This document shows, piece after piece, positions 2,786 to 58,184 of a stretch of DNA of 64,000 nt (position 1 is the first letter of the stretch; each line of letters opens with the position of its first letter). A model generated the notes under the pieces. That model was given only the letters and a program-made list of their open reading frames with translations. It was not told the DNA's origin and ran no database searches. The DNA comes from Macrostomum lignano (taxonomy: Eukaryota): positions 191,228 to 255,227 of the forward strand of contig NIVC01001651.1 of NCBI GenBank assembly GCA_002269645.1. The letters are read 5' to 3'. A program made the position numbers and the translations under genes.

Positions 2786-2812
2786 ATGGCTGGCGCATAT
2801 CCATGTGTGGTC
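2786..2812 (+). pseudogene. First 9 codons (MAGAYPCVV) of a PHD-finger ORF interrupted by the Polinton-like element
   Basis: ATG at 2786. Joining across the TSD to 12229 gives MAGAYPCVVCLQPVCDGQEAIECSQCLNWQH, the start of a PHD finger. Confidence 0.8.
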
Positions 2813-3707
2813 ACTACTATATGAACCCGTATCCGTTGATTTTGGAGGGGGGTGGGTGTCAACCCTCCTCGCCTCTCATTGGCTGGCGCCCCGATCACTA
2901 GGTGATCGATACCCGTATCGATATCGGCGCTCGGCGCGCGCGCGCCGCAGGCGCGTGGCGCCAAGCGCCGTCCAGCCGCAGGCGACCCTCCCGAGCCACC
3001 GGCGACCCTCCCCAGCCGCAGGCGCACCTACCGATATGTATGCTCACCCTACCGACATGTACCCCGATATGTACACCCTCCCGAGCCGCAGGCGCACCCT
3101 CCCGAGCCGTAGGCGCCCATGCCGCAGACGCCCATGCCGCAGGCACCCCGAGTGTACACTCTACCGAGCCGCAGGCACCCCGAGTGTACACTCTACCGAG
3201 CCAAAGGTACACTCTACCACTCTCCCGATATGTACGATATGTAGTCAACGATATTAGGCTAGTGAAAACTACTTATAGTAGGTGAAATTGAGTATATTTA
3301 CATAAAAATGTAGATAAAACATATTGGTAGGTGAATAATGACGCATATTGCATATTAAAATGTACATATTGGAGCATATGAGCAGCAAAAACACACAATG
3401 TAGGTGCATGGGCAGAAATAGACAAAGCAGGTACTGTAGGCGCTACATAGGTGGAAATACACACAGCAGGTTTACAAAGTGTACTTTCGATACATATCGG
3501 ATTAATGTATAAAGCAGGTTTACAAGGCATGCATAAGGTGTAGTTGTATAATACAGGCACGCATGTATAATCAGATTATAGGCAAACGCCCAGGTGCAAC
3601 AGACGCGTAAATAATGTCACACCGACTAAAGAGTAAATATTGTCTAACCCGCAGGTGCATAAAAATTTTAAACAAAAGCGGTTCGGGGAAATCCCAAAAG
3701 GGAGGTT
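2813..3707 (+). repeat. Left TIR of the Polinton-like element
   Basis: Reverse complement of 11328-12222; spurious ORF translations in the two copies are identical. GC-rich subterminal repeats (CCGAGCCGCAGGC, palindrome GAGTGTACACTC) are followed by an AT-rich part. Confidence 0.95.
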
Positions 3708-3716
3708 CACGGCCTA

Positions 3717-3901
3717 ATGACCCGATATACTTTCAACACAATTAAACCCACAAGTGGGCTAGAAAAATGGACAACGTATTTCGATTGCGCTATCAGTACG
3801 CTAATCAGCGCAGCAAGTTCATGTCAGGAGTTCTACTCCAAGAGGCGGACCGCTGGGCCACAAACCGCCCCGAGGGAATAGGTGTCAAATGGGAGTTTTA
3901 A
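3717..3901 (+). CDS. Possible small ORF (44 aa from ATG 3767, or 61 aa from ATG 3717 if one A is missing from the run at 3763-3767)
   Basis: MDNVFRLRYQYANQRSKFMSGVLLQEADRWATNRPEGIGVKWEF* at 3767-3901. The upstream MTRYTFNTIKPTSGLEK fuses to it with a +1 correction in a homopolymer. No recognised homology. Confidence 0.3.
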
Positions 3902-4064
3902 CACTTGAGGGGATCCCGCTCAATGTACAGTGGAGGTGCCAAATGAGTAAGGACCCCTAAGTACAGTGCGGGCGTAAAACCATTTTCATCCCCACGAGTC
4001 AAGGGATCCCAAGTGGGCACATAGGGGAATCCCAGGCGTGCAAAGACAGATCCTTATCTTTCAC

Positions 4065-7000
4065 TCACTCCCGAAAGCCATACGGGCGGCTAGCGGCCCC
4101 ATACACCCTCTTAGTCATTACGCGCTGGAAAGTCTTGTCCATCTCGAGGGTCCGGATTGTACAGCTAGCCTTATCGCGCCTGAACTGGGCCTGGGGCAGG
4201 CGTACAGTCCCGCCGTGACGCAGAATTTCCTGCAGCTCGTCCTCGCGCTCGGAAATCTCGGGGTGACTCTGATGCCCTTGCACTTGAGCACCGAGTACAG
4301 CGACCCGTCAGGCTTCTCCACCACGTACCGGTAGAGCTTGGGGCCTCCCGTGGTGAACTGTACCATGCGGCAGCCGCAGGTACCTCGTCAGTCCACTGCC
4401 CCAAACTCGAACCGCCCGGAGGCTCGTACTCGCCCGGAGAGCAGCGGTATACGACCCTGGGAGGAGGAGAAGGATAAAGTGTTAAGGGGAGAAAGAGAGA
4501 CAGAGACAGTTGAAAAAATTACTCACGAATCAGTATCGGCGTAAATGACGCGGGTTCCTAGACCCTCCAGAGCCTCGTAGAGTCGCAGCCGGGCGTGGGA
4601 GGTGGTGAAAACGCCAATAGGTACATTAGCGTACTTGAACGCCCGCTCGCCAGCACCGCCAAATCGGGGCTTGTACTCGAGCATCATGAAGCTCTCCCCA
4701 ATTGGCTCGCACGACTTGACCTTGATCGAGGGGTCGGTCAGGCGCTGCAGCCACGCCTCGTAGCTGTCCACAATCTCTGTGGAGGTCAGGTCGTCGCGCT
4801 GGCAGAATTTGCCCCAGAGCCTGCAGGGAAAAATAAATTTTATGTAAGTAGAAAAACACGGCCCCCACTGCAAGTAGAAAAAACTTACGAGTTTAGAAAA
4901 ATCTTGGCCACAAAGCGCAAGCCAGGATTCTCCTCCACCTTTTCCAGCCGGACGCCTTCGCGCTCGAAAAAGCTGGCCATGTAGGCAGCCTTGGCGTCCT
5001 CAGCCATCCCCGGCGAACCGCTAGACTCGGCTTTGAGCTTCAAAAAAGTGTTTACATAATCTGCAAACAGGCCCGTGCGAGTCTCGGTCCAATAGGCCAG
5101 GGCATGAACTGACTGCAGCTTGTAACCCAACTGCAGGGCTTTGTGGAGCTCTGGGGTCGACCACGTGCCGCGGAGCATTCTCTCAGCGTCAGTGTGTGTA
5201 CACTCGCTGCTGCACTGGGTCTCCATGCAGACGCGGCAGAGGCCGAAAACCAACTTCTTGTTAATCTTGGCGGGCAGTAGCGGGATGTGGAGATTGGTTG
5301 GCGGCAGAATCGACACCTCGGCGATGCCAAAATACCGGGCCAGCTGCAGCTCATCCAGTAGATGAGGCTCGGGGTGGTGTACCGGGTGCCCGACCGGGTA
5401 CTTGTCAAACTTGTTGACAGTCGGGTAGAGCGACACCTAGGGGATAAGGATAAGATAAACTCAAACGCATGTCAACTGTGTGTGTGTACAAGTGTACAAA
5501 CTTACCACATCCCGATAGCGCAGCTCTACAGTCTCGGTGGCCTCGGCGTGCGGGACAAAAGCCTCGGTACGGCCGCCAAACAGGGCATCCTCCAGGCGAA
5601 TAGGCTGCTGGACTGGCGCTCCCTCGTCCTGATAGTCGTGCTCCCACAGAACACGCACATTGTATGCAGTGGAGAGCAGCCGGGTGAAGCGCTCAGTCTC
5701 CTCATAAATTGCCCGCATTGGCTGGTTCTTGAGCGGGTGCAGCACGTCGCCGTTGGGGAAGCACTTGGGACAGCCATGGAAGAAACAGCCATGAAACTGC
5801 AGCACTGTCCTGGTCTCTGGGTCGAAGCCGTCGACCTTACGGCCCATGGCGAAAGCCTCGCCGCCAGAATCGGCTGTCCGCAACCGGCCGCCAAACTCGG
5901 TTGCATTTAAATGTGCCAGCCAGCACCGCGCCTTGTGCGACTGTACATCGGACCGGCGGGAAATCACCCCAAGAGTGTTGGGCTCCATAAACTTGGTGGT
6001 GAATACCGACATGGCCAAGCCCGCAATGGTGTTGGATTGAACAAATGCGTCCAGTCCGCAAATGTCCTTAATCAGGCGGGCATATTTCAGGCAGCCTTCC
6101 CGCAAAATTAACGTGTCCTGCAGGCAATAGTCCAGGTACGCCTTATTAAAATTAAACACCTGTCCTCCTGCTTGGCCAGCCAGTCGGCGATGGAGTCATG
6201 CTGCTTATTCTTCTTCCCGCCGTACATATCAATTGAGCAGTAGGGACCGACGTACCCCCAATTTTGAGGCTGATTGAAACGTGCGGGAAATCTCCTTTGG
6301 TCAGTTGGGTGCCCAAACCAAGCGCCTTTGGGAATTGCGCCAGACCAATAGGGATGAAATTGAGGCTGTCCTTGAAGGTGATCTTGTCGCACTTCATGTA
6401 CATTAGGCGGCTGTTCTGGAAGATCACCTGCGGCTTCTTCTTGGCCAGTCCGTTGAGTAGGGCGCCGAGCAGGAGGAATGCGTCATACGCAGAGCCATTG
6501 TGCGCAATAGCAATTGCCCCCTGCTTGAACACACTAGTCAGCCAGCAGTAAAATGCATCGATAGAGTGCGGCCCGACAGATACAAACTCTCGCATCCCAC
6601 AGGCACAGTCATTGTGCGAGACACAGCTCGTGAAATCCAGCGCCAGATTGCGTCCCGCAATGCAATTGGCTGAGCTGTGTAGTCCCCCGCACGCGCTGCA
6701 GCGGGGCCTGGGGAAGAGTTTGGGACACGCCTCGCAGGAGGTGGCAGCCGTAACCAAGTGTACCCGGTGCTGCTTGCCAGAGTCCACGTACGTCTCGAAA
6801 TCATAGTAAACATACGGGGCGCTAGACTCTTTGGCTTTGGGCGGGGTGACAAAGCACTCGTGGGTGGCAGTTTCGTCGTACTGCTTGCAGACTGGGCACT
6901 TGGCGTAACCACACTGATGCTCAGGGGGCTGGCCTACTTTTAGTTCTTCTAGATAGCCACACGTGCCGCAAACGTGGACCGAATCACAGCGCGATCTGCC

Positions 7001-9108
7001 GGCCTTATTCTTGCGCTTGTGATTTTCTAGGCACTGAGCATTATAGCAATTTAGCCCGCAATCATGGCATCTTACATATGCGCGGTTTGCCTTACAGTTG
7101 GAGCCCGGAGTCTTGCATGTACTGCAGGCATCAGCGCACTTGTGCTTGGCGGGTTCGCTATCATAGGCCATCTCGCACTTGGGGCAGTAGTGGTGGCTGC
7201 CGAAAAACGCAGGCAGCTTGGTAACCACATTAAAGTGCTGCTCGACCAGGTGTAGGTGCAGAATCTCGGTGCCAGGCAGGTTGAAGATGCACCTGTTGGC
7301 CTCCTCTGCGCGGTACACGCGTATACCAAAATCGTGCCCTGGATGCAGCCGGTTCAGGGCTCGGATCGCTTCGGGCAGTGCATCCACCCCGAAAGGACCG
7401 GCCTGCGAGACGGTTTGAAGAGTCTGTGTGGGGGGTAAAATATTTCTTTTAGTATTCCCTGATACTATGTAAAATTCTTTTAGTATTCCATGATACTGCG
7501 TAAAAATTCTTATCAGAAAATATATCTTTTAGTATTCCACGATACTGTGTAAAAATTATTATCAGAAAATATTAGTATTCCATGATACTGTGTAAAAAAT
7601 TATTATCAGTACACAACTTACCGTGTAGAGGCCAGCTTCGATTTGTAGCTCAGTCGCAAGCTTAGTCTGCTTGGACGAATTGGCCTTGATCGTGCGCCAC
7701 ACCTGCTCGCTGATGGACTTGGCCACGAATTGCAGGTAGGCGCAGGCCACGACCAGAGCGCGCAGCAGGCATCTCTTGTCCGAGTTGGTGATGCGGACAT
7801 AGTGCCTGGAGAAGGCGTGCCGCTCTTCTAGATGCTTGTTCTCGAGAGCACATCCACCTCGAGGCACCCAGGCCTTTAGCAGACGGACAGAAAAGTTGCC
7901 TGACAATACAGTGGCATCCGACTGCACAATCTTGTCAATGTGCTTAAACAACAATTCAGCCGTCATGCGGGCTGCACGCACCGGGGGAGTGTGGGCCGCT
8001 TTGAGCATGTTGTCGCTCTCGAATTTCGCGGCCATAAAGTCATCACCAGCCAAATCTTGCTTGAAAACTTCGAGCATGTCAGCAAACACCTCCCGCAAAT
8101 CTTCGGTGTTGGTAATACGCACCACATACTCGACACCCTTTGCCCTAAACTTGGGCAGGTCACGCTGATTATCCAGCCGGGCCGTAAAACCTGCATGGGG
8201 GAATGGGGGAGTGTGAGTCAGCCCGGGTCTGTGTGGGAAATGGGGGGCGGGATAACTCACCCGGTCCGGTAACAGATTCCGGCTGTGTTGGCGGGACAAA
8301 CGCGTCTGAAAAAACACAAGGAGATAAAAAACCAGAAGAATCTGTCATTTTCCTGGCCCCAGCGTGTTTCCCGCCCTAGCCCCAGCAATTTCTTAACAGA
8401 GTTTACTCTGCTGTCCCCGCAGCAACTCTCTGCAATTTCTTATCTGCACCCCCGCTGCAGCCTGTCGCAGCAGTCTTTGTTTACTCACCCCTGCAACTCT
8501 CTGTCGCAGCAATTTGCACCCCAGCTGCAGCCTGTCTGGGTAGCGCCCTATCTGCAGCCCCAGTCTGTCCCAGCAACTCTCTGCCCCCACCCGGCTGTAA
8601 CTTGTCTAGCCTGCCCCAACGATTCTGCAGCAATTTCTTATCTGCCGCAGCACCCTAGCAACTGTCTGTTTTTGCAGCAATTTCTTATCAGCACACCCCT
8701 CCCTGTCTAGACAACACCCCACCCCAGTCTTTGTTTACTCACCCCTGCAACTCTCTGTCGCAGCAATTTGCACCCCAGCTGCAGCCTGTCTGGACAACAC
8801 CCCCCTAGCAGCAATTTCTTATCAGCACACACCCGGCTGAAACTTGTCTAGCCCTCCCCTGCAACTCTCTGTTACAGACCCTGCCGCAGCACCCCACCCT
8901 AGCAACTCCAGTCTAGACCCCTGCAGCTGTCGCAGCAGTCTTTGTTGTTTACTCTGCGGTCCCACAGACCCTGCAGCTGCTGCTGCTGCTCAGCCCCTAC
9001 CCCCACCCTAGCAACTACAGTCTAGACAGAAATTAATTAAAACTTACCATAAAGACGTTGCCTCTTGTCAGCCAGGAAAGCAGTTGCGGTGGCGCTGCGT
9101 TTAGCCAT
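4065..9108 (-). CDS. Protein-primed family B DNA polymerase, 7 exons, about 1269 aa after correcting four apparent 1-bp deletions
   Basis: Exons 9108-9048, 8305-8261, 8190-7622, 7402(or 7423)-5506, 5436-4889, 4820-4527 and 4456-4065, all with GT..AG boundaries and matching phases. Exo I YYDFETY, Exo II AHNGSAYD, Exo III YCLQD, motif A YRDV/VSLYP, motif B KIFLNS/LWGKF, motif C YADTDS, then GGPK, KCKGI and C-terminal RPYGF. Contains the KVDGF...QFHGCFFHGCPKC nuclease-like insert seen in some Maverick polymerases. Confidence 0.93.
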
Positions 9109-9179
9109 TTTGCAAACAGAGAGCGTGAGAGAGCGAGCGGAGAGAAGGATTATCTCTCTACCCTGGCTCTGGGGGTCTG

Positions 9180-9304
9180 TATATATACTAAAAAATCTGC
9201 TCAGCTCGCCTGTTATTGGATAAATCGCCAAAAACCAACCAAAATCATCAAAAATCACCCCCAAAATCATCACCCACCCCACCCTCCATCCGGGGGTATA
9301 TAAG
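9180..9304. promoter_or_regulatory. Putative divergent promoter between pPolB and the PC4-like gene
   Basis: TATATATA at 9180-9187 lies about 70 bp upstream of the pPolB ATG on the minus strand. TATATAAG at 9297-9304 lies about 45 bp upstream of ATG 9350. A further TATATAAT at 9920 precedes ORF 10000. Confidence 0.5.
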
Positions 9305-9349
9305 GCGCTGCACGGCTGTCAGAGAGCTCTCTGCTGCTGCTGCTAAATC

Positions 9350-9883
9350 ATGTCTTCTATCTCTCTATACGAAAACTTTGTGGCGCGGAAGCCCACATTT
9401 GAAACTGAACACAACTTGATTGAAATTCGGCGTCTCTACACCAACGAGGCTGGAGTGTGGAAGGACGGCTTCCCTGCAATCTACTTGGCCGAGCCAGAGT
9501 GGAAGAAGCTCGAAGCTGCGCGCCCTGACCTGGAGGCTGCTGCCCGCCTTCACGTGAACAAGCGGGTCCTGTTGGGCAATTTCAAGGCAGTTGAAGCTTC
9601 GCGAGGGAGGATCCGTTTGCTGCGCAATTGGCTCAATCAGGACCCAAAGTTTAATTGGCGCTACACGATCGAATTCACGCCTGAACTGTGGCGCCGGATG
9701 TTTGCCGCCCGTTTGGACAAGCTCTTCAAGCCGGCACCTGAGGCACCCCCTCCAGCCAAGCGAGTCAAGACAGACACGCCTCCGGTAGCCGGGACTGAGG
9801 TGGATGTTCTTCAGCTCATGGGTCTCAAACCCTACCAATCTCCACCCTGGGAAAATCTGTTTAACGAGGGTTGGGACTGCTAG
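9350..9883 (+). CDS. PC4-like (ssDNA-binding fold) protein, 177 aa, possibly two tandem PC4 units
   Basis: IEIRRLYTNEAGVWKDGFPAIYLAEPEWKKL resembles the PC4 pattern vDIRe.Y...Ge.kpGkkGIsL..eqW..L. A second segment, IRLLRNWL...YTIEFTPELWRRM, has a similar ending. Basic C-terminal PPAKRVK is NLS-like. Confidence 0.65.
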   Translation: MSSISLYENFVARKPTFETEHNLIEIRRLYTNEAGVWKDGFPAIYLAEPEWKKLEAARPDLEAAARLHVNKRVLLGNFKAVEASRGRIRLLRNWLNQDPKFNWRYTIEFTPELWRRMFAARLDKLFKPAPEAPPPAKRVKTDTPPVAGTEVDVLQLMGLKPYQSPPWENLFNEGWDC

Positions 9884-9999
9884 TTTCCTATTGGTTCGCA
9901 CCGCCTCACTCGATCCGTCTATATAATTAGTGTTTCCCCCCTCTCCAGAGAGTCAAACCCTATCTCAGCTCTAATACTTTACTCTCTGTTGATTCTAGC

Positions 10000-11013
10000 A
10001 TGTCCCGCCGAGCTCTATCCAACCTCTGGGATAATAATCGCCCGACTGAAGAGTTAACCAGCCTCGACGGGGATATCCCTGAACACATAGTTCCCCTAGG
10101 CACTGAAAACAACGGAAGTGATAATTGGGAGGCTGATCAATATCTAGCTTGGGCTATGTCCTATGATAGCGACACCGAGTCTGAAGTTTTTGACCTCCCG
10201 CTGCTGGCTATCGGCGGGGTTGTGAACGGTGCCCCTGCTGCTACTGCCTCCGATTTGACTACCGCCTCAGCCGCCCTCTTTGACGTCTCTGTTGAGGAGC
10301 TGACCACAACCGGCCCTGCCTCTGCTGCGCCCGTCTCTGCTGCTGCCGCCTCTACTACGCCCGTCTCTGCTGCTGCTTCAACTACCTCCCACCGGGCCTC
10401 AATATCATCAGCCGCTACGCTCCTTCTCTTCGACGACGAGGACGAGGATATGTCTGAGGAGATCGCCGTGGTTCGTGAGCGCTTTCCTCGCATTGTGGCC
10501 TCATTTTTCCGCGGGACATTGACTGGCTGAGGTCTCGGCATCCTGGCGGGCTGCCCTCCCAAGCTACCTTTGTCAGAGCCTTTAATCGGGTTCTTGATAC
10601 TTTGGTTGCGAGGGGTGCCGGCCTACGGGAGGTGTTGGAGGCTGAGACTCTGCACCAGGACTGGTTGATGGGGCGCAATTCGTATGCCCCCGACTCTGAG
10701 GCGTACCTGGCCGGTCCGGGAGCGCGGCCAACTGCGTGGGATGAGCCCGTCGCATGGCCCTCCAACTGGGAGGAGCACCTTTCGTTGGTGCGCTATACAG
10801 CGTCTCTACGTCTGTGGCGGCTGGAGGACGATTTAGATTTGGTAAGATATTACATTATATACACAACTCATCTAATCATATACCTTGCATATATTCTATC
10901 TACATTGACTGTTATAATTTCCACATTGCCAGTCATCCGACTACTGCTTCGAGAGCGTGGAGGAAGAGGCCGCGTACGAGACAGCCCTGAGGGAGCGTAT
11001 GGAGATTGACTGA
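10000..11013 (+). CDS. Acidic orphan protein of the element (2 exons, one apparent 1-bp frameshift near 10513)
   Basis: ORF 10000-10530 continues as DIDWLRSRHPGGLPSQATFVRAFNRVLDTLVARG if a G is added to the G-run at about 10513. A GT-AG intron at 10842-10932 (phase 0) leads to SSDYCFESVEEEAAYETALRERMEID* (stop 11011-11013). No homology recognised. Confidence 0.6.
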
Positions 11014-11327
11014 TAAGGGTATTTCTCTTTGTACGCGGTTTGGGGAACCCAACACTGTACACTGGGTAGGTTAGAATGGGCGCTAGCTGGGGGGCCTCTA
11101 TGTGTGTATACACGGGGGTTAAAAGACCAATTCTGATAGCTCGCTCCTAGGGAGGAAATTGGCAGAGGGGCCGGCCCAAAAAACTGAAATGGGCTGGCCC
11201 CGGGCTCGAGTCCACCCACCTAAAATATGGAGGGTCATTACAACCTAATGACTCGAAATACTTTCAACGCAATTGTACCTATAAGAGGGTTAGGGCGGCG
11301 GCGGCGGTGGCGAAAACGGGCGGCTAA

Positions 11328-12222
11328 AACCTCCCTTTTGGGATTTCCCCGAACCGCTTTTGTTTAAAATTTTTATGCACCTGCGGGTTAGACAATATTT
11401 ACTCTTTAGTCGGTGTGACATTATTTACGCGTCTGTTGCACCTGGGCGTTTGCCTATAATCTGATTATACATGCGTGCCTGTATTATACAACTACACCTT
11501 ATGCATGCCTTGTAAACCTGCTTTATACATTAATCCGATATGTATCGAAAGTACACTTTGTAAACCTGCTGTGTGTATTTCCACCTATGTAGCGCCTACA
11601 GTACCTGCTTTGTCTATTTCTGCCCATGCACCTACATTGTGTGTTTTTGCTGCTCATATGCTCCAATATGTACATTTTAATATGCAATATGCGTCATTAT
11701 TCACCTACCAATATGTTTTATCTACATTTTTATGTAAATATACTCAATTTCACCTACTATAAGTAGTTTTCACTAGCCTAATATCGTTGACTACATATCG
11801 TACATATCGGGAGAGTGGTAGAGTGTACCTTTGGCTCGGTAGAGTGTACACTCGGGGTGCCTGCGGCTCGGTAGAGTGTACACTCGGGGTGCCTGCGGCA
11901 TGGGCGTCTGCGGCATGGGCGCCTACGGCTCGGGAGGGTGCGCCTGCGGCTCGGGAGGGTGTACATATCGGGGTACATGTCGGTAGGGTGAGCATACATA
12001 TCGGTAGGTGCGCCTGCGGCTGGGGAGGGTCGCCGGTGGCTCGGGAGGGTCGCCTGCGGCTGGACGGCGCTTGGCGCCACGCGCCTGCGGCGCGCGCGCG
12101 CCGAGCGCCGATATCGATACGGGTATCGATCACCTAGTGATCGGGGCGCCAGCCAATGAGAGGCGAGGAGGGTTGACACCCACCCCCCTCCAAAATCAAC
12201 GGATACGGGTTCATATAGTAGT
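11328..12222 (-). repeat. Right TIR of the Polinton-like element
   Basis: Reverse complement of 2813-3707. Confidence 0.95.
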
Positions 12223-12228
12223 GTGGTC

Positions 12229-15924: not shown

Positions 15925-17830
15925 CACCCGACCAGCATGGATTTAATCGGTAGAAAAGGTAACGTTTTCTACGATTAGATAGGGTAGATGGCATGTCGAC
16001 TGCCAGCATAACATGCTTTCCTTCTGATTAAAAGCGGACTGTATATACTTGTATTGGGCAGTTATGGCGCGCAATTCAAAAGCCTACGCACAACCAATAT
16101 TATAATGGCTCGACATATTTAATTAGTATAGGGCATTGTGTTAGTATGTATGAATTCAAGACCTAGACTAATAAAGCATGAGTTTGTGTCTATAGAGTCG
16201 AAAACTTTGGAAATGTGTCGCCCTAGCTTGCACAAAAAGCCATGTATGACATGACTGAATGAAATTTAATTAGGAGGTTAATGATTGTAAAATAAACTAG
16301 CTACTTGGACCTCTTGACAATAAGGATGAAATGGTCCTGTTGCAGGCAGATATATATTTTAATTGGGCTTAAAAAAAAAGAAAAAGCTTGATGGCTAGCT
16401 AGCTAGGTGGCCTTGGCTCACCCAGTTATTGGCCTTATATTGGCCTTCTTATCAATATGTGGGCCATTTTGTACTGCATTGTGCTTTAATCTACTTTGTT
16501 TTTCTTCTTTATTGCCAGGTATTTAGTATAATTTTTTAGCTCTTAGTTGTATTCTTTATTTTAATATCACTCTATACTTGTACCATGAAAAGACACACAA
16601 AAGGCCTTGTCAATTTTAGGCCTATGATAGGTAGCTAGCTATGTTATTTTATTTTAGTAATAGGCCTATAGCTATTAAGAGTAGGCCTACTAAATTATTA
16701 GTCTATAAAATGTATATGGTCTAAAATAGGCTAGCTATTTTAGACCCTATTATATTTTATGCTTCTTGTCTAACAATCTAATAATTGTTGTAGGCCAATA
16801 TTATGAAATGTATAGGCCTAGCTATAGAAAAAGAAAAAGAAGCCAATAACCTTCCTAATGAATAAATTAATTAATATTAGTTCAGTTGTGTATTTACTTT
16901 ATATTTATTGTCATATGAATTATATACTTATAAGACAGAGTTTTGATTTTTATAGATAGAGATTGCATTTAGCCTAGGCCTATCTACTCTAGTCTGCCTA
17001 TCCTCTACCTATGTCTGTTCTCTCAATCATTATATTTTTACTTTTTCCCTCTCTTAATTCCTTTATATCATGCTTCTCAATTATCTCCCATCTTTGCCCC
17101 TCCCCAATTCCCTCCTATCCTGCCCACCCCCCAATTCCCTCCTATCCTGCCCACCCCCCAATTCCCTCCTATCCTGCCCACCCCCAATTCCCTCCTATCC
17201 TGCCCACCCCCCAATTCCCTCCTATCCTGCCCACCCCCAATTCCCTCCTATCCTGCCCACCCCCAATTCCCTCCTATCCTGCCCATCCCCCAATTCCCTC
17301 CTATCCTGCCCATCCCCCAATTCCCTCCTATCCTGCCCATCCCCCAATTTCCGCCATCCTGCCCCTCAATCTTTTCACCCTTGGGTTTTAAGCTATAAAC
17401 CCAAGGCAATTCAAAATCTGGAAATGAATTTCAAATTGGAAAATTGAATTCAGCATTTCAAGCACCTTTCAAAAAGGCAAAACTATAGAGCTAGAAAATA
17501 TGGAACTATTTAACTTCCTTAAGTTCAATAAGTTATAGTTGGATATTGCCAACTCTTTTCCAGGTGCCTCTATCTAGCTAATGCTAACAAAAATGTTGCA
17601 AGGTGTACTTTAATATTATATTTGTTCTAGTAAGCAGTTTTTCTGTGTCTCCCATTCTACCCCACCTTTCCCTCCCGTTCTACCCTTCCATTCCTTCCCA
17701 TTCTACCCCTCCATTCCCTCCCATTCTACCCCCACCATTCCCTCCCGTTCTACACTTCCATTCCCTCACATTCAACCCCCTCCATTCCCTCCCATTCTAC
17801 CCTTCCATTCCTTCCCATTCCCACCCCTCT
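15925..17830 (+). repeat. Left TIR of the KDZ element (about 1.9 kb), including 24-25-bp and roughly 23-bp C-rich minisatellites
   Basis: Reverse complement of the right end. Array (CCCAATTCCCTCCTATCCTGCCCA)n at about 17100-17350 and (TTCTACCCTTCCATTCCCTCCCA)n at about 17650-17830. Confidence 0.9.
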
Positions 17831-18354
17831 GCTCTTTCCTACCCTCCTCCGCTCCACCCTCTCCCACCCAACTCTTTTCTACCTTCTCCTATACCTCCAC
17901 CATCTCCGCCCTCTTCCGCCCTCCCATACACCCCTCGCCCTCTCCCACCCTTTCCCGCCTTTTTTGAAATCCCACCACCCTCTCCCACACCCTTTCGCTC
18001 TCTCCCATCCTCTTCCGAAAGGCTGGAAGGGGGTTTTTCTGATTGCAATTTCGATTACATTTCCAGTGCTACTGCCATTTTCGAAAGCTATGGGTCGCCA
18101 TGGCAAAGTTCGTAAAAGAAGTACGTGGTCCATGTTTGTAAAGCTAAGAGGATCTAGTAAGTATTGCGTTTCTGTTATGGAGAAGTTTTGAAACTAGTGA
18201 GAAACATTTAATGTTTGTTTTATTTAAAATACTTAAATTTCGAAAATAGTGACGTGAGAATCAGCCTCCGGCTGCTAGAGCTGCTTCGAGGCTTCGTCTG
18301 CTGTCATACGATTCTGATCCTGGTTTGATTTAAAATACTTACATTTCTCATTCA

Positions 18355-18588
18355 GACGGATTTTCGAAAGACCGCATGGCCTTCTTGGCAAACGAATTTA
18401 AACAACTGACCTCTGAGGACAAGGCCGTCCTAGAAAATGCCGCCAAGGAGGCGAAGCAGCAGTGCCTATCGCGTTGTCCATCAAGCCTTGAGCTGGAAGA
18501 AATGGTAATCACAGATAGCGACTGGTATGGTAATCGTCCCGGAAATATGGTGAATTTTCTATCAGAAATCGAAGTTATAGATATGTGA
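18355..18588 (+). CDS. HMG-box-like exon inside the KDZ element
   Basis: After an acceptor-like TTCAG: MAFLANEFKQLTSEDKAVLENAAKEAK, resembling HMG-box helices 2-3. HMG boxes are known passengers of Zisupton-type elements. Confidence 0.45.
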   Translation, partial: DGFSKDRMAFLANEFKQLTSEDKAVLENAAKEAKQQCLSRCPSSLELEEMVITDSDWYGNRPGNMVNFLSEIEVIDM

Positions 18589-19922
18589 TCCAGTGAGGTG
18601 GCAGTCGTACTCTCACTGGTTATGATATGACCGCTGATTCGCAGTTTTCAACAATTGTATAGCTAGATTGAGTCCCGGCTCATAACCGTTCTTGTTACAT
18701 ATCCCAATTCTATCCCAAAGCTAAAAATAAGATCCGAGCTGCATTATCCCAATTTGGCCTGCGTAGATAAACAATCCTTCAATATTTAGCTCAATGTCGC
18801 ACTCAAATTGCACACACATAAATGCGTACATTAGTAAACAGTTTGCTGTTCCCCCCCCCCTCAATAATAACTTATTACGCACATACTACCCCAGGCCCGT
18901 GCAATGTTTTATAGCCAGGATCTGCTGAGCATCTGTAAATCTGCTTATTCACTTCCAGGCACGAGGACTGTATGCTGATTACCACATCTTACTGATAGTC
19001 AAGAAGCGCAACGGCTCAAGCTTTCGCACTTGTGCGTCTCCCGAAGTCGCAGGACTTCTAAACGAAAATTCTGGACTTTTACAAGTAGGTCAAAAATTTC
19101 CAGAGTTGTTTACGGACCTTTATCTACAGATTCTCCAATTATCTACGATGGGTACAATTCTTTCTTTTTATTACACGAGGGTAACCTGGCGCAACGCCTT
19201 GGGTGACATCATTTCAAAGCCAGCACGGAGGCAATTCCGCCCATTCCGCTGACTTTGAGCACACACACGGATACGTACGCAGGTGCACACTCACATAGAG
19301 GTATACATCTGCTCTGACTTTCTCGTCGGCAGGCATTTTTACCACTGCCTGGGGGTTGGCCTAGTGGCATAAATCGCACAAGCCCCAGGTGGCCATCCGC
19401 CCCACAAATTAATGTACTGCGCTGCAGAATTGAGCCCAAGAATTATTCGTGGCAGTCCGATTCGTTACCGCTCGGCTACTTAGTCCCCTAAGATATTATA
19501 AAATTCTAATATTTCTAAGGTGCACATTATAAAATCCATCTATTTAGCAATGCATATGTTTGCAGCATTACGTATATTTTTCGCTTGCTTCTTCGTTACA
19601 GAAGTTCGACTTACTGAGTGCTGGCCTGGCAGAGCCTTCCACTCGAAAACCCACGGTTGAGCACATGCGCAAAGAGGTTCGGGCATCAGTTCGCATGGCA
19701 TATGGTGAGATGACAATATTGCTTACTTGTTGGCTTGTGTATTTTCCACTTCGCTTGTTTAATTCAGCTGTGACTCAAGGCTATAGTGGAAGCGCGAGCT
19801 CTCTAAAATCTGGCGGACCATTTTCATCAGTTGCTTTTGTGGCTATTTTGTGATCGCAATCAGTTTGTTCGAATCCATATTACAGGCTTCATCTATTACA
19901 TTCTTTCTCAGCTCAAGCCGGA

Positions 19923-20609
19923 ATGGGCGCCAAGCTGAATTTTAAAAACCTACGTGGCGCATTCTTCCCGAGCATTAAAAATCCTGCGGAGATGAACGCC
20001 GCAGAGCTTCGGGAGGCGTATGAATCGCGTGGCCACTTACGATTCATCCGCATCGAGTCTGAGAATCGGCCTCCGGCTGCTAGTGCTGCTTCGAGGCCTC
20101 ACACGCTGTCATCCGATCCTAATCCTGCGTCCGACCTGTGGCCGGTCGGTGCTGCTGCCCAGGCCTTCAGGCTCAGCTCGGACTCGGCCGGTGGATCTGC
20201 GGTCATCGTCGGTCGCGGCTCGGCCGGCGGATCTGCGGTCGTCGTCGGTCGCGGCTCGGCCGGCGGATCTGCGGTCATCGTCGGTCGCGGCTCGGCCGGC
20301 GGATCTGCCGTCGTCGGCGGTCGTGGCCCGGCCGGCGGATCTGCGGTCGTCGGCGGTCGCGGCTCGGCCGGCGGATCTGCGGTCGTCGTCGGTCGCGGCT
20401 CGGCCGGCGGATCTGCGGTCGTCGTCGGTCGCGGCTCGGCCGGCGGATCTGCGGTCGTCGTCGGTCGCGGCTCGGCCGGCGGATCTGCGGTCGTCGTCGG
20501 TCGCGGCTCGGCCGGCGGATCTGCGGTCGTCGTCGGTCGCGGCTCGGCCGGCGGCTTCGCTACCGTGACTGGCGTTGGCAGCTCCAGCGAGGGGACTATG
20601 CTGTACTAA
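19923..20609 (+). CDS. ORF with a SAP/HeH-like start and about 10 copies of a 12-aa repeat (GSAGGSAVVVGR)
   Basis: MNAAELREAYESRG resembles a SAP/LEM-type helix. A 36-bp tandem array at about 20182-20557 is open in several frames, so the true frame and strand are uncertain. Confidence 0.35.
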   Translation: MGAKLNFKNLRGAFFPSIKNPAEMNAAELREAYESRGHLRFIRIESENRPPAASAASRPHTLSSDPNPASDLWPVGAAAQAFRLSSDSAGGSAVIVGRGSAGGSAVVVGRGSAGGSAVIVGRGSAGGSAVVGGRGPAGGSAVVGGRGSAGGSAVVVGRGSAGGSAVVVGRGSAGGSAVVVGRGSAGGSAVVVGRGSAGGSAVVVGRGSAGGFATVTGVGSSSEGTMLY

Positions 20610-20828
20610 AGTGCTGTTTTCTTCCTTATTTTTGTAACGGACTGAGATTAAAACAGGGTTGAAAGAACACGCATTTTGCATTGCTGTCGTTTTTTTTTCG
20701 TGGCGTCCTGGAAGTTATTCGACTCCCTTTCGGTTTTAGGAAACTCAATGTCATTCCGATACTCTATGCAAAATCCCTAGTACTTTTACATATATTTACA
20801 TATAGTTCAATTTCTCAGCTCAGTATGT

Positions 20829-23800
20829 TTAGTGTTTTGCGCTTAGGAACTTCTGCGGACACATGAGCCTTTGGTGTTTCTTCCACGGCTGCACAGTCAG
20901 TGGAAAGGGCCTGGCGGTGTGGCTGTCGAGGCGTGAGTAAATTGACGACGACGGATCTCCCAGATCTTTCAGCGAATACTGACAGCCACTAGATTCACGC
21001 AGCTCACTCATCTCCTTACATAGTACATCTGCCTTGCGAGTGAGCAGTCGAGCCTGGTGCGACCCTGGATGTGATAGAATAGGGTAATTAAGTTTTTAAA
21101 AGTTAAAGTTTTAAGCGAAAAAGTTTTTTATACAAGGCAATTAAAATACACACCAACTAAGAAGAGCGAATAAGAAGGCAATGCCGACTGTACCTCTCGT
21201 GAAATCAAATTTTAATATTTATGCGACATACCTATGCAGCGGTTCAATTCGCTTAACGTCCGCCGCTTCTCAACTGCAAGTCGACGCATTTTTGAAGCCA
21301 ATCGCCAGTACGCAGAAGCGCCGCACGAGCGTCTTCGCGGAGCCATTGCTGACCTAGATGCACCAATTGCTCAGTGGTGAAACCTAAAGTTTTTAATAAC
21401 ATAATAATTGGAACCTAGATAATTTTACATATTTGTAAAATATCATATCCAGTACGTGAATATTGCCGAATATTGCAATTTTTAACTAACCCGACTGTGA
21501 AACGATTCCCTGAATTTCACGGACGTGCTGATCGATTAGCTTCTCTTTTTTCGAAATTAGTTTTTCCCTGGATTTCAGCCATGAATCTGAAAAGGAAAGG
21601 CAAGAACCAGTAAAATACAAAAGGCAACTTTTCAACAACGCCAGTAATGAATGGGTTTTCAGTTTCACAGTGATTTCGCAGGGAGCCAATTAAGTCATGT
21701 CCAATCACACCACCAACAGACAATTATCTCAACAAAAAATTGGACTATTATCTCAGCAAATAATTATATAAGTTAACATTTTCAGCTATTATATAGTGCA
21801 CATGAGATGTGACCTATTAAATAGAATGCTAACCAGGATCCAGACGCAGGTGGTACATTCCGATGATATGCGCGATAAGCCTGGTGCGCCTATCAATGCG
21901 CATCTCCTTCAGGATGCGCCCGTATGGGCGCAAGAGCGAGAAAATGCGTTCGCAGATTTCTCCGTCAGTGATACCGGTACCAGGCGTAACGCGGATAGAG
22001 TTGTTAAGCTGGATCAAATAAATTTTAAGAAAATCGGTCTCAGGCTACTAGTCTTACTTAAGTGAACCAGCTGCAGCAACACAATAAATTTCTAATTCCT
22101 TTGAATTTAAAACTTCAAAAATACTTAAAACACGCACCGCTCTCCAGGAGTGCGCACGTCAGAGCAAGCCCAAATAAATCCGTGACGACATGCAATAATA
22201 AAAAAGCCTTTGACGTCCAGCTTGGAGGATGTGCGACAGACATAAGATGTTTCTCCTGCAGTCCAATTCGGGCAGGCGCCATGAGCAGGCGCAATGACTT
22301 GACCAGAAAGGTCAACACGCGCAAACGGGAACGGAATTTCTCCGTCTAGGGGCTCATCGCTAACGTCAGCACCTGCAGCAGATCTACGCCTCCATCCCAT
22401 AAGAGCGTCGCCGTGCAAGATAGGTCCCTGTCGAAAACAAGTTTATGGCGTGAATTTGTACTACATTCATCTTCCTTACCCGCTACATGTGTTTTCGTCT
22501 TGTCTTACCACTTCACTAGATCGGCAAAGCGTACACTCGGAAGGAAATCTTGCGACTTGAGCTAAAAAAGCTCTATACAAGCCGATGGTGTTGTTGCGCA
22601 GAAGATCGCTGTACAAATCTCGCTGCGGTGTGTAGTTTAAGAGAAGTGTTATAAGGATTAAAAGAGTATAAGACCAGAAAATATAGACAACTTAAAAGAA
22701 AGACTAGTGTTTTATGTCTTGCGTCAATAACTGCCCTATTTACACCTTATTTTCTTGTCTCGCAGTCAGCTTTAATAAATGATGGATGAAGGAAAAATAA
22801 GAAACTCACCCCCGAGGCGCTGCCCAAAACAAATTCTTCTATCTCCAACGACGGCACAAGCCTTTGACAGCGATGTGATTCCATTGACCATGATGGAATC
22901 CAACGTATTTAATAGTTCGAACGACACGAAGGTCAAGGTGCTGTCGGAAGTTGGAAAATAGTTTAGGGCAACCATGAATTCTGAGCAATGCTGAGTATCG
23001 CATGCGTCGATCACAGTCGAATGGTAACCTGCAAAAGGAGAAGCAGAAGAAAACAACCATCTACGTACATCACTAAGTTTTTTATGTTCAATAATCAGCC
23101 CACGTGCTTATGAGCAGAGCGTATAAAATGATACAAATAATCTGAATCCATAAAAAAAACATATCTCAAATGAGCACCCCAGCGCTAAAATTATGTTACC
23201 CATATTTAATAAGGAAATCTAATTATTAACAGCCTAGGAATAGAGACAGAATGAATATATCGTGTAACAACGAACGAGACTTTCCTCCATAAGCATCCAA
23301 AAGTTGCACTTTTAAGGATGAGCCTGGAAAGCAGCCACACTTAAACTTGGGAGGCAGGTCGAGAAGCTCACCATTCTAAAAAGCAGAGTTAGGATTGGAT
23401 GAGTAGAGATAGTGATTTGTGGGCGTGGATTGAAGGGATTGGGGAATATATAGGAATAGAAGGAATAAATAAGGGTGGATGGAAGTAATTCAGAGATTAG
23501 TCACAACGTCTTTAACACATTTAACTGACATTTAATTTGGACAGTAAAAACATAAAAAACGCCGCACATGCATTACCTGGAACATAGAATGCACGAGACC
23601 TTTATGGCGACTAGCGGCACATTTTGTGCAGAAGAAGGCTGCACATTGTGGGCAGTATATCGAGCCTAGGCTCGTACACTCAGCGCAAGTACCGATCTCG
23701 ACAGCCCTTAAGAAGGCTGCGAGAATTCCTGGCCTGGTACTAGCCCTGACATCTTCCCAGTCAGAAGGCTCTCCGTTAGCGTGGCTGCTATCTGCCAATG

Positions 23801-23915
23801 GAACGGGCTCATCTTGGACAATGCTGTCCAGTACCTGAGTAGCAGTCAGAGTCTTTTTCAGCTCTTGATTCTTCCTAATGCCAGCCAAGAGTGCTGTGCG
23901 ACCATTTATTCGCAC
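20829..23915 (-). CDS. Multi-exon CxC + KDZ transposase gene, probably defective
   Basis: Zn cluster CAECTSLGSIYCPQCAAFFCTKCAASRH; LNYFPTSDSTLTFVSFELL; ILHGDAL; KLDVKGFFIIACRHGFIWACSDVRTPGER; PGTGITDGEICERIFSLL...KEMRIDRR. These match KDZ motifs. The intervening YDxxC motif was not found. Confidence 0.8.
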
Positions 23916-24169
23916 TCGTAATTATTTCTTTGAGCGGCTCTGAAAGGAGTATATAGAAACATTGCAGAAAAAATATATGCTAATTTATGCCCTAGTCTTT
24001 TAACCTTACGTAACCCAACACTATTGTCTATTAATAACTGACAGCCAACACATTCCGCATCTTTCTGCTCTCCAAGACTTCAACGAATACTCCCTCAGGA
24101 TATATAATAGCTACTTAAAATATATACTAATGCAAAATATTATTAGCAATTAGCTATTCAGGAGACAGG

Positions 24170-26792
24170 GTAGAACAGGGTAGAATGGAAGGGTAGAATA
24201 GGAGGAAATGGAAGGGTAGAACGGGAGGGAATGGAGGGGGTAGAATGTGAGGGAATGGAAGGGTAGAATGGGAGGGAATGGAGGGGGTAGAATGTGAGGG
24301 AATGGAAGGGTAGAATGGGGGGGAATGGAGGGGGTAGAATGTGAGGGAATGGAAGGGTAGAATGGGAGGGAATGGAGGGGGTAGAATGTGAGGGAATGGA
24401 AGGGTAGAATGGGAGGGAATGGAGGGGGTAGAATAGGAGGGAATGGAAGGGTAGAACGGGAGGGAATGGAAGGGTAGAACGGGAGGGAATGGAGGGGGTA
24501 GAATGTGAGGGAATGGAAGGGTAGAATGGGAGGGAATGGAAGGGTAGAATGGGAGGGAATGGAGGGGGTAGAATGTGAGGGAATGGAAGGGTAGAATGGG
24601 AGGGAATGGAGGGGGTAGAATGTGAGGGAATGGAGGGGTAGAATGGGAAGGAATAGAAGGGTAGAATGGGAAGGAATGGAAGGGTAGAATGGGAAGGAAT
24701 GGAGGGGGTAGAATGTGAGGGAATGGAAGGGTAGAATGGGAGGGAATGGAGGGGGTAGAATGTGAGGGAATGGAGGGGTAGAATGGGAAGGAATAGAAGG
24801 GTAGAATGGGAGGGAATGGAGGGGGTAGAATGTGAGGGAATGGAAGGGTAGAATGGGAGGGAATGGAGGGGGTAGAATGTGAGGGAATGGAGGGGTAGAA
24901 TGGGAAGGAATAGAAGGGTAGAATGGGAAGGAATGGAAGGGTAGAATGGGAGGGAATGGAGGGGGTTGAATGTGAGGGAATGGAAGTGTAGAACGGGAGG
25001 GAATGGTGGGGGTAGAATGGGAGGGAATGGAGGAGTAGAATGGGAAGGAATGGAAGGGTAGAACGGGAGGGAAAGGTGGGGTAGAATGGGAGACACAGAA
25101 AAACTGCTTACTAGAACAAATATAATATTAAAGTACACCTTGCAACATTTTTGTTAGCATTAGCTAGATAGAGGCACCTGGAAAAGAGTTGGCAATATCC
25201 AACTAGGCCTATAACTTATTGAACTTAAGGAAGTTAAATAGTTCCATATTTTCTAGCTCTATAGTTTTGCCTTTTTGAAAGGTGCTTGAAATGCTGAATT
25301 CAATTTTCCAGTTTGAAATCCATTTCCAGATTTTGAATTGCCTTGGGTTTATAGCTTAAAACCCAAGGGTGAAAAGATTGAGGGGCAGGATGGCGGAAAT
25401 TGGGGGATGGGCAGGATAGGAGGGAATTGGGGGATGGGCAGGATAGGGGGGAATTGGGGGGTGGGCAGGATAGGAGGGAATTGGGGGTGGGCAGGATAGG
25501 AGGGAATTGGGGGGTGGGCAGGATAGGAGGGAATTGGGGGTGGGCAGGATAGGAGGGAATTGGGGGTGGGCAGGATAGGAGGGAATTGGGGGGTGGGCAG
25601 GATAGGAGGGAATTGGGGAGGGGCAAAGATGGGAGATAATTGAGAAGCATGATATAAAGGAATTAAGAGAGGGAAAAAGTAAAAATATAATGATTGAGAG
25701 AACAGACATAGGTAGAGGATAGGCAGACTAGAGTAGATAGGCCTAGGCTAAATGCAATCTCTATCTATAAAAATCAAAACTCTGTCTTATAAGTATATAA
25801 TTCATATGACAATAAATATAAAGTAAATACACAACTGAACTAATATTAATTAATTTATTCATTAGGAAGGTTATTGGCTTCTTTTTCTTTTTCTATAGCT
25901 AGGCCTATACATTTCATAATATTGGCCTACAACAATTATTAGATTGTTAGACAAGAAGCATAAAATATAATAGGGTCTAAAATAGCTAGCCTATTTTAGA
26001 CCATATACATTTTATAGACTAATAATTTAGTAGGCCTACTCTTAATAGCTATAGGCCTATTACTAAAATAAAATAACATAGCTAGCTACCTATCATAGGC
26101 CTAAAATTGACAAGGCCTTTTGTGTTTCTTTTCATGGTACAAGTATAGAGTGATATTAAAATAAAGAATACAACTAAGAGCTAAAAAATTATACTAAATA
26201 CCTGGCAATAAAGAAGAAAAACAAAGTAGATTAAAGCACAATGCAGTACAAAATGGCCCACATATTGATAAGAAGGCCAATATAAGGCCAATAACTGGGT
26301 GAGCCAAGGCCACCTAGCTAGCTAGCCATCAAGCTTTTTCTTTTTTTTAAGCCCAATTAAAATATATATCTGCCTGCAACAGGACCATTTCATCCTTATT
26401 GTCAAGAGGTCCAAGTAGCTAGTTTATTTTACAATCATTAACCTCCTAATTAAATTTCATTCAGTCATGTCATACATGGCTTTTTGTGCAAGCTAGGGCG
26501 ACACATTTCCAAAGTTTTCGACTCTATAGACACAAACTGCTTTATTAGTCTAGGTCTTGAATTCATACATACTAACACAATGCCCTATACTAATTAAATA
26601 TGTCGAGCCATTATAATATTGGTTGTGCGTAGGCTTTTGAATTGCGCGCCATAACTGCCCAATACAAGTATATACAGTCCGCTTTTAATCAGAAGGAAAG
26701 CATGTTATGCTGGCAGTCGACATGCCATCTACCCTATCTAATCGTAGAAAACGTTTACCTTTTCTACCGATTAAATCCATGCTGGTCGGGTG
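24170..26792 (-). repeat. Right TIR of the KDZ element with an expanded purine-rich minisatellite (about 24170-25085)
   Basis: Reverse complement of 15925-17830. The inner GGAATGGAAGGGTAGAATGGGA array is several-fold longer than its left counterpart. Confidence 0.9.
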
Positions 26793-40489: not shown

Positions 40490-41387
40490 ATGAAAAGTAA
40501 TTTAATTTTACTTTTTCTGGGCTTATTGTTTATTTACGGTGAATGTCAGCAGAAAGTTCTTCTCTCTAGCGTGCAATCAATAACACTCCACAGTGAAAAG
40601 TTTACCACAGCGCGGAGAGGATCGCCAATACCTCAACTTCGTTGCATTCCAACTGTTATACCTTGTAAATCTCTTCCAAGCACAGTGCAATGTTACAATA
40701 AAGGAACGGATGGACTAGACGTGCAGTGGAAATGCGAGGCTCAATTGCCAAAAAGTGTTCAGTTCGACACAATACAGGTAAGCTAAATAGTTTTTAGATG
40801 CTACAGTTTATGTTTAAGAATAATGACAGAGTAACATTGCATTGCAGGTCAGCTGTGAAGGCTACGATCACCCATCTGATCCCTACATTCTTGCTGGCTC
40901 TTGCGGTTTGACGTTCTCACTGAAGCCAACTGGAATTCATCATCACAAGCATAGTCATCATGGACATCACCACCATCATCAGCACAACGCGCACTATGAA
41001 GTGCACACTGTGCGAAGTAGTGCCACGGTGCCAATTATTTCCGGCATACTATTGGTAGTTGTGCTGATTGGCCTAGTGTTACTAGCCTACAGAATTTGTC
41101 CCTGCCATCCGACGCATCCGACAATGCTTAGCGACACTCCGCCGACCTATTATTGTCGAACTCAGTACAAACCGCTGGTCGATGAGTGCAGCGGCGGCCA
41201 CAACGGTCCTGGTTTTTGGACTGGAGCGGCAATTGGCGGCGCTGCTGGATACCTGGTTGGCAGCTCGGGCCCGACGGTGGCTGATACGACAGTTGTCCAG
41301 ACATGCGTGATATCATCTGACGATGATTCCTGCGATGAAGACGAAGTCGTAACATCGGCCGGCTACGCGTCGACCTGGAGACGATAG
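40490..41387 (+). CDS. SARAF: Store-operated calcium entry-associated regulatory factor (SARAF/TMEM66), 2 exons, about 275 aa
   Basis: Signal peptide, then KVLLSSVQSITLH...TTARRGSPIPQLRC...VQCYNKGTDGLDVQWKCEA / VSCEGYDHPSDPYILAGSCGL, a TM helix, PGFWTGAAIGGAAGYL and terminal TSAGYASTWRR. Intron 40778-40847 (GT-AG, phase 0). Confidence 0.93.
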
Positions 41388-57492: not shown

Positions 57493-58184
57493 AAAGCAAA
57501 ATGGTATAAACAGTTCGTGCAATGGGTGAGATGCAGCACGAATTTTTTTATCGCGCGACTGCGATTTTTTTCTGGTCAGGTAGCCAATTTTGTCGGACCA
57601 ACGGGTATGAAAAGTAGGTTTGACTATTGTTGCATTACGATCTTTTTAAAAATTCAACGAAGTATAGTTTTTAACTTGAACATTATACTATAGACGTATA
57701 CAGGCGGACCAAAAACTGAGAGCGAGAGTGAGAAAAAAACATGGAAACTGATGCTACAAGAGTTCTGTAAAATGTACCAACAAAAAGGTCTCCTATCCGC
57801 TGTTTCACCTATTTGCCATGCATGATCTATTCTTTTGGTGCTGCACTATTTATTTTTCTAAAATCTTGGTTGTCACAGTGCTGTCAACATGTGCTTATTT
57901 GATATTAATTATTTATGAAACCATAAATACTTAGTTTCTCAAGTTCGACAATATACAAATCCTATGGCTATATTTAAGCCAATAGGTACGCTTAAGAGCC
58001 AACAGAAGACAGCTGAGTCATAATGCTATTGGAATTTAAATGAAAACAGGCATACTGGTTTGAGCCTTTCATTTTTTGCTTCGATGCACCTCAAAAATTG
58101 GTATTGGAGAAAATCGGACCTCTCGCTGACATTCGGACCCCTTAACCATAGAGGTCCGTATATGGCTACGCTTCGGACCTTCAT

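Follow-up and report, generated by a model that had tools for sequence, protein, structure and literature searches.

Spliceosomal introns in the catalytic motifs of a protein-primed DNA polymerase gene on one segment of a likely bipartite Polinton from Macrostomum lignano

The window analysed here, meaning the whole stretch of DNA under study, is 64,000 nucleotides long and comes from Macrostomum lignano (GenBank assembly GCA_002269645.1, contig NIVC01001651.1, forward-strand positions 191,228 to 255,227). Positions given below are counted from its first letter. Splice joints were read from contigs of four runs from four studies; these contigs are presumed to be RNA and cannot measure intron retention. 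The window contains an integrated element with the following parts.

2807..2812, + strand: left target-site duplication, GTGGTC
2813..12222, no strand: whole element, 9,410 bp, with ends ACTACT...AGTAGT; polymerase segment ("A") of a likely bipartite Polinton
2813..3707, + strand: left terminal inverted repeat, 895 bp, 100% complementary to the right repeat
9350..9883, + strand: gene for a PC4-like putative ssDNA-binding protein (Atlas lead, 0.86)
10000..10932, + strand: third gene, without a family match; the span covers the gene up to the end of its intron
10842-10932, + strand: intron of the third gene, 91 nt, GT-AG, joint seen in 3/4 runs
11328..12222, - strand: right terminal inverted repeat
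12223..12228, + strand: right target-site duplication, GTGGTC

In three of the four runs, contigs (presumed RNA) contained an empty-site joint that skipped 9,416 bp, that is, 9,410 + 6 bp. This joint confirmed the bounds of the 9,410-bp element. Six-bp target duplications were also present in 15/15 two-ended relatives. The ends had first been read as CACTA with a 4-bp duplication, which would point to the CACTA/Chapaev transposons, whose ends are CAC...GTG with a 3-4-bp duplication. That identity was rejected, since the outer base varies among copies and belongs to the 6-bp duplication. The element has a protein-primed family B polymerase (PF03175) and, as in Polintons, long terminal inverted repeats with a target duplication of 5-8 bp, typically 6 bp. 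It has no retroviral-like integrase, which was found on a partner element (PF00665), and no capsid, ATPase, or protease gene, all of which were found on partner elements. Nor are its core genes intronless, the polymerase gene (pPolB) having six introns. No direct Pfam match was obtained for the PC4-like gene of the window; its sister copies showed 28-31% identity (E ~1e-8) to a PF02229-matching protein of complete Polintons.

Elsewhere in the window, a further large inverted-repeat structure containing simple repeats occupies 15954-26762, its ~2-kb arms being 99% complementary. At 40827-41387 (+ strand) lies a SARAF-like host exon (PF06682, E 2e-27), and at 60418-61227 (+ strand) a weak integrase zinc-finger match, probably from an LTR retroelement.

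The pPolB gene lies on the minus strand of the element. Its exons and introns are given below in the order of transcription, with intron lengths of the counterparts in a related family, family 2, that is described further on.

9048..9108, - strand: exon 1, 61 nt (20 codons + 1 nt)
8306..9047, - strand: intron 1, 742 nt, phase 1, skipped in 2/4 runs; family 2 counterpart 998 nt
8261..8305, - strand: micro-exon 2, 45 nt
8191..8260, - strand: intron 2, 70 nt, phase 1, skipped in 4/4 runs; family 2 counterpart 79 nt
7622..8190, - strand: exon 3
7424..7621, - strand: intron 3, 198 nt, phase 0, exact in 2/4 runs
5506..7423, - strand: exon 4, with Cys-rich region, exonuclease, Vsr-like insert (named from its motif), and start of motif A; frame breaks in the window copy
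5437..5505, - strand: motif-A intron, 69 nt, phase 0, YRDV^VSLYP, with in-frame stop
4889..5436, - strand: exon 5, motif A to motif B
4821..4888, - strand: motif-B intron, 68 nt, phase 2 in the Ser codon of KIFLNS^LWGK
4527..4820, - strand: exon 6, motif B to motif C
4457..4526, - strand: motif-C intron, 70 nt, phase 2 in the Ser codon of YADTDS^VVY
4065..4456, - strand: exon 7; frame breaks in the window copy

The exon translations matched PF03175, and the closest database proteins, 92-96% identical, were labelled Macrostomum lignano. The original prediction, made from the letters alone, had placed three introns of 68-70 bp in polymerase motifs A, B, and C. All their coordinates held, on the minus strand, and the joints were present in contigs. 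The three further introns claimed for the 5' half, with a first exon of 20 codons and a 45-nt micro-exon, were likewise borne out by contig joints. When splice junctions were looked for, the presumed-RNA contigs skipped all six introns, each in at least two of the four runs. The motif-B and motif-C introns were skipped in all four runs and the motif-A intron in three; in each of two runs a single contig skipped all three. In one run a contig entered the motif-A intron. For intron 3, the two runs without the exact joint had a 200-nt variant joint. No intron-free copy was found among 142 junctions at genomic loci (47 for A, 44 for B, 51 for C).

The three motif introns have GT-AG ends of the form GTRAGT...YAG with a pyrimidine tract, and their GC content is 37-43% as against 56-62% in the flanking exons. 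The contigs, presumed to be RNA, lack them exactly, and no genomic junction is intron-free. Hence, they are real introns of the ordinary host (U2) type that are removed by splicing. Host introns have reported mean lengths of 1.1-1.4 kb (PMC5730564). The skipping of introns at GT-AG ends also supports the proposal that the gene depends on nuclear splicing by the host. Features of inteins or group I introns were absent, each motif intron containing a stop or a frameshift, so that retention of any one of them breaks the reading frame. An Rfam search of the introns gave no match below E 0.87, and no endonuclease was encoded within them. When the introns were compared with each other for the likeness expected of introners, only two marginal pairs (shuffle p 0.025-0.045) emerged among all comparisons.

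Searching the genome for sister copies yielded 98 candidates; the 40 that were scored had 90-100% identity, and 30 loci were taken for an intron check. GT..AG ends were kept at all three motif sites in 30/30 loci of this family (family 1). Indel events per 100 bp numbered 1.4-2.5 in the introns and 0.03-0.05 in exons 5-6. For exon 5, pN/pS was 0.047 in 25 copies of equal length, four others of different length being left out. Across the genome junctions the introns measured 65-144 nt, except for one broken case of 2,574 nt. The family 2 protein is 69% identical to that of family 1 over 503 aligned residues. Family 2 has introns at the same bases and in the same phases in motifs A, B, and C, as well as counterparts of introns 1-3, its splicing being deduced from its DNA. 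The donor of intron 3 occupies the same position in both families, and the acceptor deduced for family 2 lies seven codons further on. Since positions and phases coincide, the introns predate the split of families 1 and 2, and no similarity of intron sequence is detectable between the two. It may be noted that a degraded, AT-rich, intronless Vsr-type pPolB (L097-L098; G000:C234, ~57200-59400) groups next to the intron-bearing families with moderate support.

We examined 18 pPolB loci, 12 of them bounded by duplications and 9.4-10.8 kb in length. Integrase, capsid, ATPase, and protease were found in 0/12 of the bounded elements, with the same queries that find the control element. A partner element of 10,443 bp with ACTACG ends carries an integrase (PF00665), a capsid gene (Atlas 0.95-0.98), a protease (recognized by motifs), and an ATPase (by tblastn to the complete Polintons of the genome), without a polymerase. 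Its capsid and integrase queries gave 67 and 70 genome matches, respectively, in two identity classes. Ten further partner loci were inspected: exact duplications delimit four of them (10.2-10.6 kb), and inverted repeats were seen in the remaining six. No polymerase was found on any of the 11 partner loci. The ends pair by family, ACTACTA (family 1) with ACTACTA, and ACTACG (family 2) with ACTACG or ACTACA, one identity class of partners going with each family, and variants of the first 30 bases are common to the polymerase (A) and partner (B) segments. In the complete Polintons of the same genome, the ends read AGTAG and the polymerase, of HNH type, is intronless. Pairing of the A segments with these, or with capsid elements found by PF21738, was considered and discarded: the ends are AGTAG, and those checked have an HNH-type polymerase. 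A PF04665 search of the genome gave no match even though ATPases of this kind are present, which shows that family searches have low sensitivity in this genome.

Complementary gene sets thus lie on two elements with matching ends, in pairs that have diverged together, and we consider it quite probable that these are two co-diverged A/B pairs of a bipartite Polinton. That the segments co-operate we infer from the 6-bp duplications around integrase-less copies and from the similar sizes of the two. Segment A would supply the polymerase and the PC4-like protein, and segment B the integrase, capsid, protease, and ATPase, in trans.

Several other observations concern these elements. At the element ends (2813-2846 in the window, and likewise on other A and B segments), bases 8-25 of the terminal repeats differ strongly from copy to copy; the two ends of one copy usually agree in them, and A and B segments have the same variants in common. 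Such shared end variants suggest that ends may be exchanged. Five loci (L031, L037, L042, L043, L050; e.g. G000:C977:137703-146994) are near-perfect palindromes of 8.5-9.4 kb with arms of ~4.5 kb, family-1 ends, 6-bp duplications, and no recognised gene (four ORFs tried). Their size is near that of the A segment, as a packaging limit would give, and shorter forms of 4.1-6.7 kb occur too. Among family-2 bounded elements (e.g. L182:172-3400), 6/7 are without the PC4-like gene and seemingly carry the polymerase alone; other elements, whose ends resemble those of family 2, gave PC4-like matches. Complete Polintons with AGTAG ends form several families in this genome (L161-L180, L201-L220), and those checked join integrase and capsid with an intronless HNH/EndoVII-type polymerase, a pairing that recalls polymerase replacement in nematodes.

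To rank the intron sites by conservation, a profile of 22 homologues with read-through tails trimmed was used. Site B fell in the top 0.6%, site C in the top 0.8%, and site A in the top 12.5%, with intron 3 at 82%; introns 1-2 could not be aligned to the profile and stand outside the ranking. Fisher's combined p for clustering at conserved positions was ~0.018, post hoc and for the window gene alone. An earlier profile had given p=0.41, with no signal because intron read-through tails contaminated its rows. About ten other blocks are nearly as conserved as the motifs, and each was hit at most once. The suggested bias of introns towards catalytic motifs thus has some statistical backing in the window gene (p ~0.02) and holds for motifs B and C, mainly through recurrence in other lineages. 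A nearness to the pol-a/b/c intein sites had also been claimed. The pol-a and pol-b sites presumably lie near motif introns A and B. The pol-c site is YGD/TDS (slash at the insertion point; PMC549080), and the motif-C intron follows it by 8 nt. The likeness is positional only, no intein-sized insertion being found in any of 150 representative relatives.

Recurrence was sought in metagenomes by a scan that selected only for a splice donor in motif C. It gave 28 loci, four of which were pPolB; the other 24 pattern matches were not. In these four, the motif-C intron lies 1, 5, 6, and 7 nt from the second Asp, compared with 5 nt in the window gene. Motif B, which was not selected for, also has an intron in 3/3 of the metagenome loci that cover it, its distance from the Asn codon being 8, 11, and 13 nt (5 nt in the window gene). 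Beyond the motif introns, one locus has none in ~1,090 codons, another has three, which lie outside the motifs, and the fourth locus has a single one. The seven environmental introns, deduced from DNA or protein tails, are ~50-165 nt long. Among environmental ORFs reaching motif B, 14/27 stop at the Ser codon or read through a short pyrimidine-rich insert, as judged from protein tails only; this codon is of the AG type in 13 and likely of the TC type in one. In one environmental protein motif B is the sole break in ~1,330 codons.

A single clade of Ser-B intron holders was rejected (p-AU 0.0007). At least three changes are needed, and the tree allows one gain with two losses. This tree followed two earlier ones that had included the badly cut row P0013; it omitted P0013, the near-duplicates P0024/26/28/33, the possibly spliced gene models P0012/39/49, P0032/37/40/42, and the metagenome loci. 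Strict patterns found motif A uninterrupted in 122, motif B in 105, and motif C in 137 of the 150 representative relatives. Fifteen of the 150 end early, three at query 448-454 (motif B), three at 549-555 (motif C), and nine elsewhere. Separately, four of the 150 (P0122, P0124, P0134, P0178) end at query 578-581, just past the LGxLTxEL block, where there may be a further intron site or a hot spot of frameshifts. The motif-A intron was not found elsewhere by a protein search that excluded short exon-sized ORFs. A viral collection gave no close relative; its five motif-C pattern matches were not pPolB, and the motif-B pattern gave none. Seven related viral loci were inspected: three run through motifs A-C without an intron-sized break, three identical ones stop after motif B, and one is too distant. 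Across related pPolB genes, most relatives are intron-free, and other lineages have putative short introns in motifs B and C at shifted bases. Motifs B and C are likely recurrent intron-gain sites: the offsets differ inside catalytic codons and would be hard to reach by sliding, which suggests separate gains, and the concentration on motif B despite some ten blocks of nearly equal conservation suggests targeting.

How might such targeting arise? Site-specific nucleases would cut the most conserved polymerase DNA, i.e. the motifs. A motif intron could then be what is left of a spliceosomal homing intron that has lost the nuclease it carried. Alternatively, the cut may have been repaired with a spliceable insert that was kept as a shield, hiding the cut site with the protein unchanged. 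Once inside a catalytic motif, an intron could be lost only by exact removal and would persist. Relic homing introns or shields are favoured here because the known elements that target such sites are nuclease-driven. One study found a preference for conserved sites among group I introns and inteins but none, in its test proteins, among spliceosomal introns (PMC2814812). In mirusviruses, core genes are described as the targets of spliceosomal introns that encode nucleases (PMC12768974), masking of cut sites by introns has been proposed for Bodo saltans virus (PMC5871332), and Polinton polymerases are reported to carry VSR or HNH inserts (PMC10748475). An HNH-type Polinton polymerase is present in the Macrostomum lignano genome. 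We hold the chances about even that these are U2 introns in one half of a likely two-segment Polinton, with B and C as repeated gain sites because nucleases target conserved polymerase DNA. The fuller reading, that a bipartite integrating lineage of animal Polintons has a spliced polymerase segment and that nuclease conflict between elements makes the catalytic motifs of Polinton polymerases hot spots of new spliceosomal introns (shields or emptied homing introns), is put forward tentatively.

Neutral gain would explain the same introns by random insertion at proto-splice contexts in elements resident in the nucleus, with survival only in gap-intolerant motifs, where the splice context is fixed and imprecise loss is not tolerated. 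Many insertion points are indeed G/G, AG/N, or G/GT, as this predicts, and often lie in invariant Gly, Trp, Asp, Ser, and Val codons. Motifs A-C account for three of the six introns in the window gene, the other three falling outside them, as do four of the environmental introns. At intron 3, a poorly conserved site, the acceptor seems to have shifted between the families, unlike the motif introns. The traces expected of nucleases were also not found: there was no long or nuclease-bearing intron among the genome junctions or the seven environmental introns, no excess of identical synonymous codons beside junctions as a mark of co-conversion (14/26 vs 148/311, p=0.55), and no avoidance of GGNCC, TCGA, or GATC, the three words tried. 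However, neutral gain predicts a spread over the ten or so similarly conserved blocks, and yet all intron-bearing lineages that extend over motif B were hit there, and the long environmental protein mentioned above is interrupted nowhere else. The partner-segment core genes, moreover, are intron-free in the same nucleus, and the test proteins of PMC2814812 showed no preference of spliceosomal introns for conserved sites. On balance, we regard neutral gain as somewhat unlikely.

If the B and C introns were instead ancient, inherited from an ancestral polymerase with many losses, shifts of a few bases, and transfer by recombination at conserved motifs, the Ser phase-2 position common to the window gene, the environmental clade, and one locus at motif C would follow, and the tree needs only three changes. 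Such a history would require four distinct offsets per motif inside catalytic codons and loss in most relatives (motif C contiguous in 137/150, motif B in at least 105/150), and both TCN and AGY Ser codons occur at the shared site; it appears improbable. An expression switch, by which retained motif introns keep the polymerase off except in splicing cells, would fit the stops and frameshifts caused by retention and the one run with a contig entering the motif-A intron. The three upstream introns already make the gene dependent on splicing, so that a position in the motifs adds nothing; the splice sites are canonical, and spliced contigs occurred in runs of four studies. The control of expression suggested in the original prediction thus found no support, and we consider it very improbable. 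Nuclease-targeted gain at motifs B and C remains our preferred reading.

Spliceosomal introns in Polinton polymerase motifs, a bipartite Polinton, or Polintons of Macrostomum were not found in the part of the literature covered; Repbase and paper supplements may already list such elements. Polinton core genes are described as intronless, and screens based on ORFs will miss or truncate spliced polymerases of this kind. Spliceosomal introns are reported to show no preference for conserved sites; their repeated gain only a few bases from catalytic residues is at odds with this, and makes motifs B and C a definite location for testing how introns originate. A two-segment integrating Polinton, if true, changes the reading of defective or satellite Polintons, and the hot-spot reading, if true, would mean a targeted route of spliceosomal intron gain. 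The host flatworm is kept in laboratories and the element is transcribed there, so these questions can be followed up.

Among known systems, the closest are the Polintons/Mavericks (adintoviruses) with a Vsr-type pPolB (PMC10748475, PMC8502044, PMC8097293), which share the PF03175 polymerase, long inverted repeats, 6-bp duplication, and PC4-like gene; their integrase, capsid, protease, and ATPase genes are matched here on the partner element. The core genes of vertebrate and nematode Mavericks are described as intronless (PMC8097293; 10.1101/2022.07.12.499685), in contrast to the six introns of the present polymerase. Unlike in known Polintons, polymerase and integrase/capsid sit on separate elements of 9.4-10.8 kb, and the ends are ACTAC as against AGTAG in the complete Polintons of the same genome. 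The "shintrons" of mirusviruses (PMC12768974) resemble the motif introns in their GT-AG ends, location in essential genes of a nuclear DNA virus, and preference for target genes. They are described as encoding HNH, GIY-YIG, VSR-like, or PD-(D/E)XK nucleases and favouring morphogenesis genes, whereas the motif introns are 65-90 nt, non-coding, and in a polymerase. Inteins at sites I-III of family B polymerases (PMC549080) and group I introns of Bodo saltans virus (PMC5871332) likewise crowd into catalytic motifs of replication genes; these are protein- or self-splicing, at fixed sites and with their own nuclease, whereas the present insertions are spliceosomal and a few bases off. Group I introns are reported in protist Polinton-like elements (PMC12220804), and spliceosomal introns occur, in the form of introners, inside Polinton-like proviruses of dinoflagellates (PMC11957031). 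Introners are repeated and mutually similar, and the introns of the window pPolB are not alike.

Bidnaviruses are parvovirus-like ssDNA viruses without an integrase. As bipartite pPolB viruses (PMC8502044) they are comparable to the present pairs in having two segments with matching termini, one of which carries pPolB. Here, in contrast, each half is integrated between 6-bp duplications, and the capsid gene was assigned to the double-jelly-roll type (Atlas).
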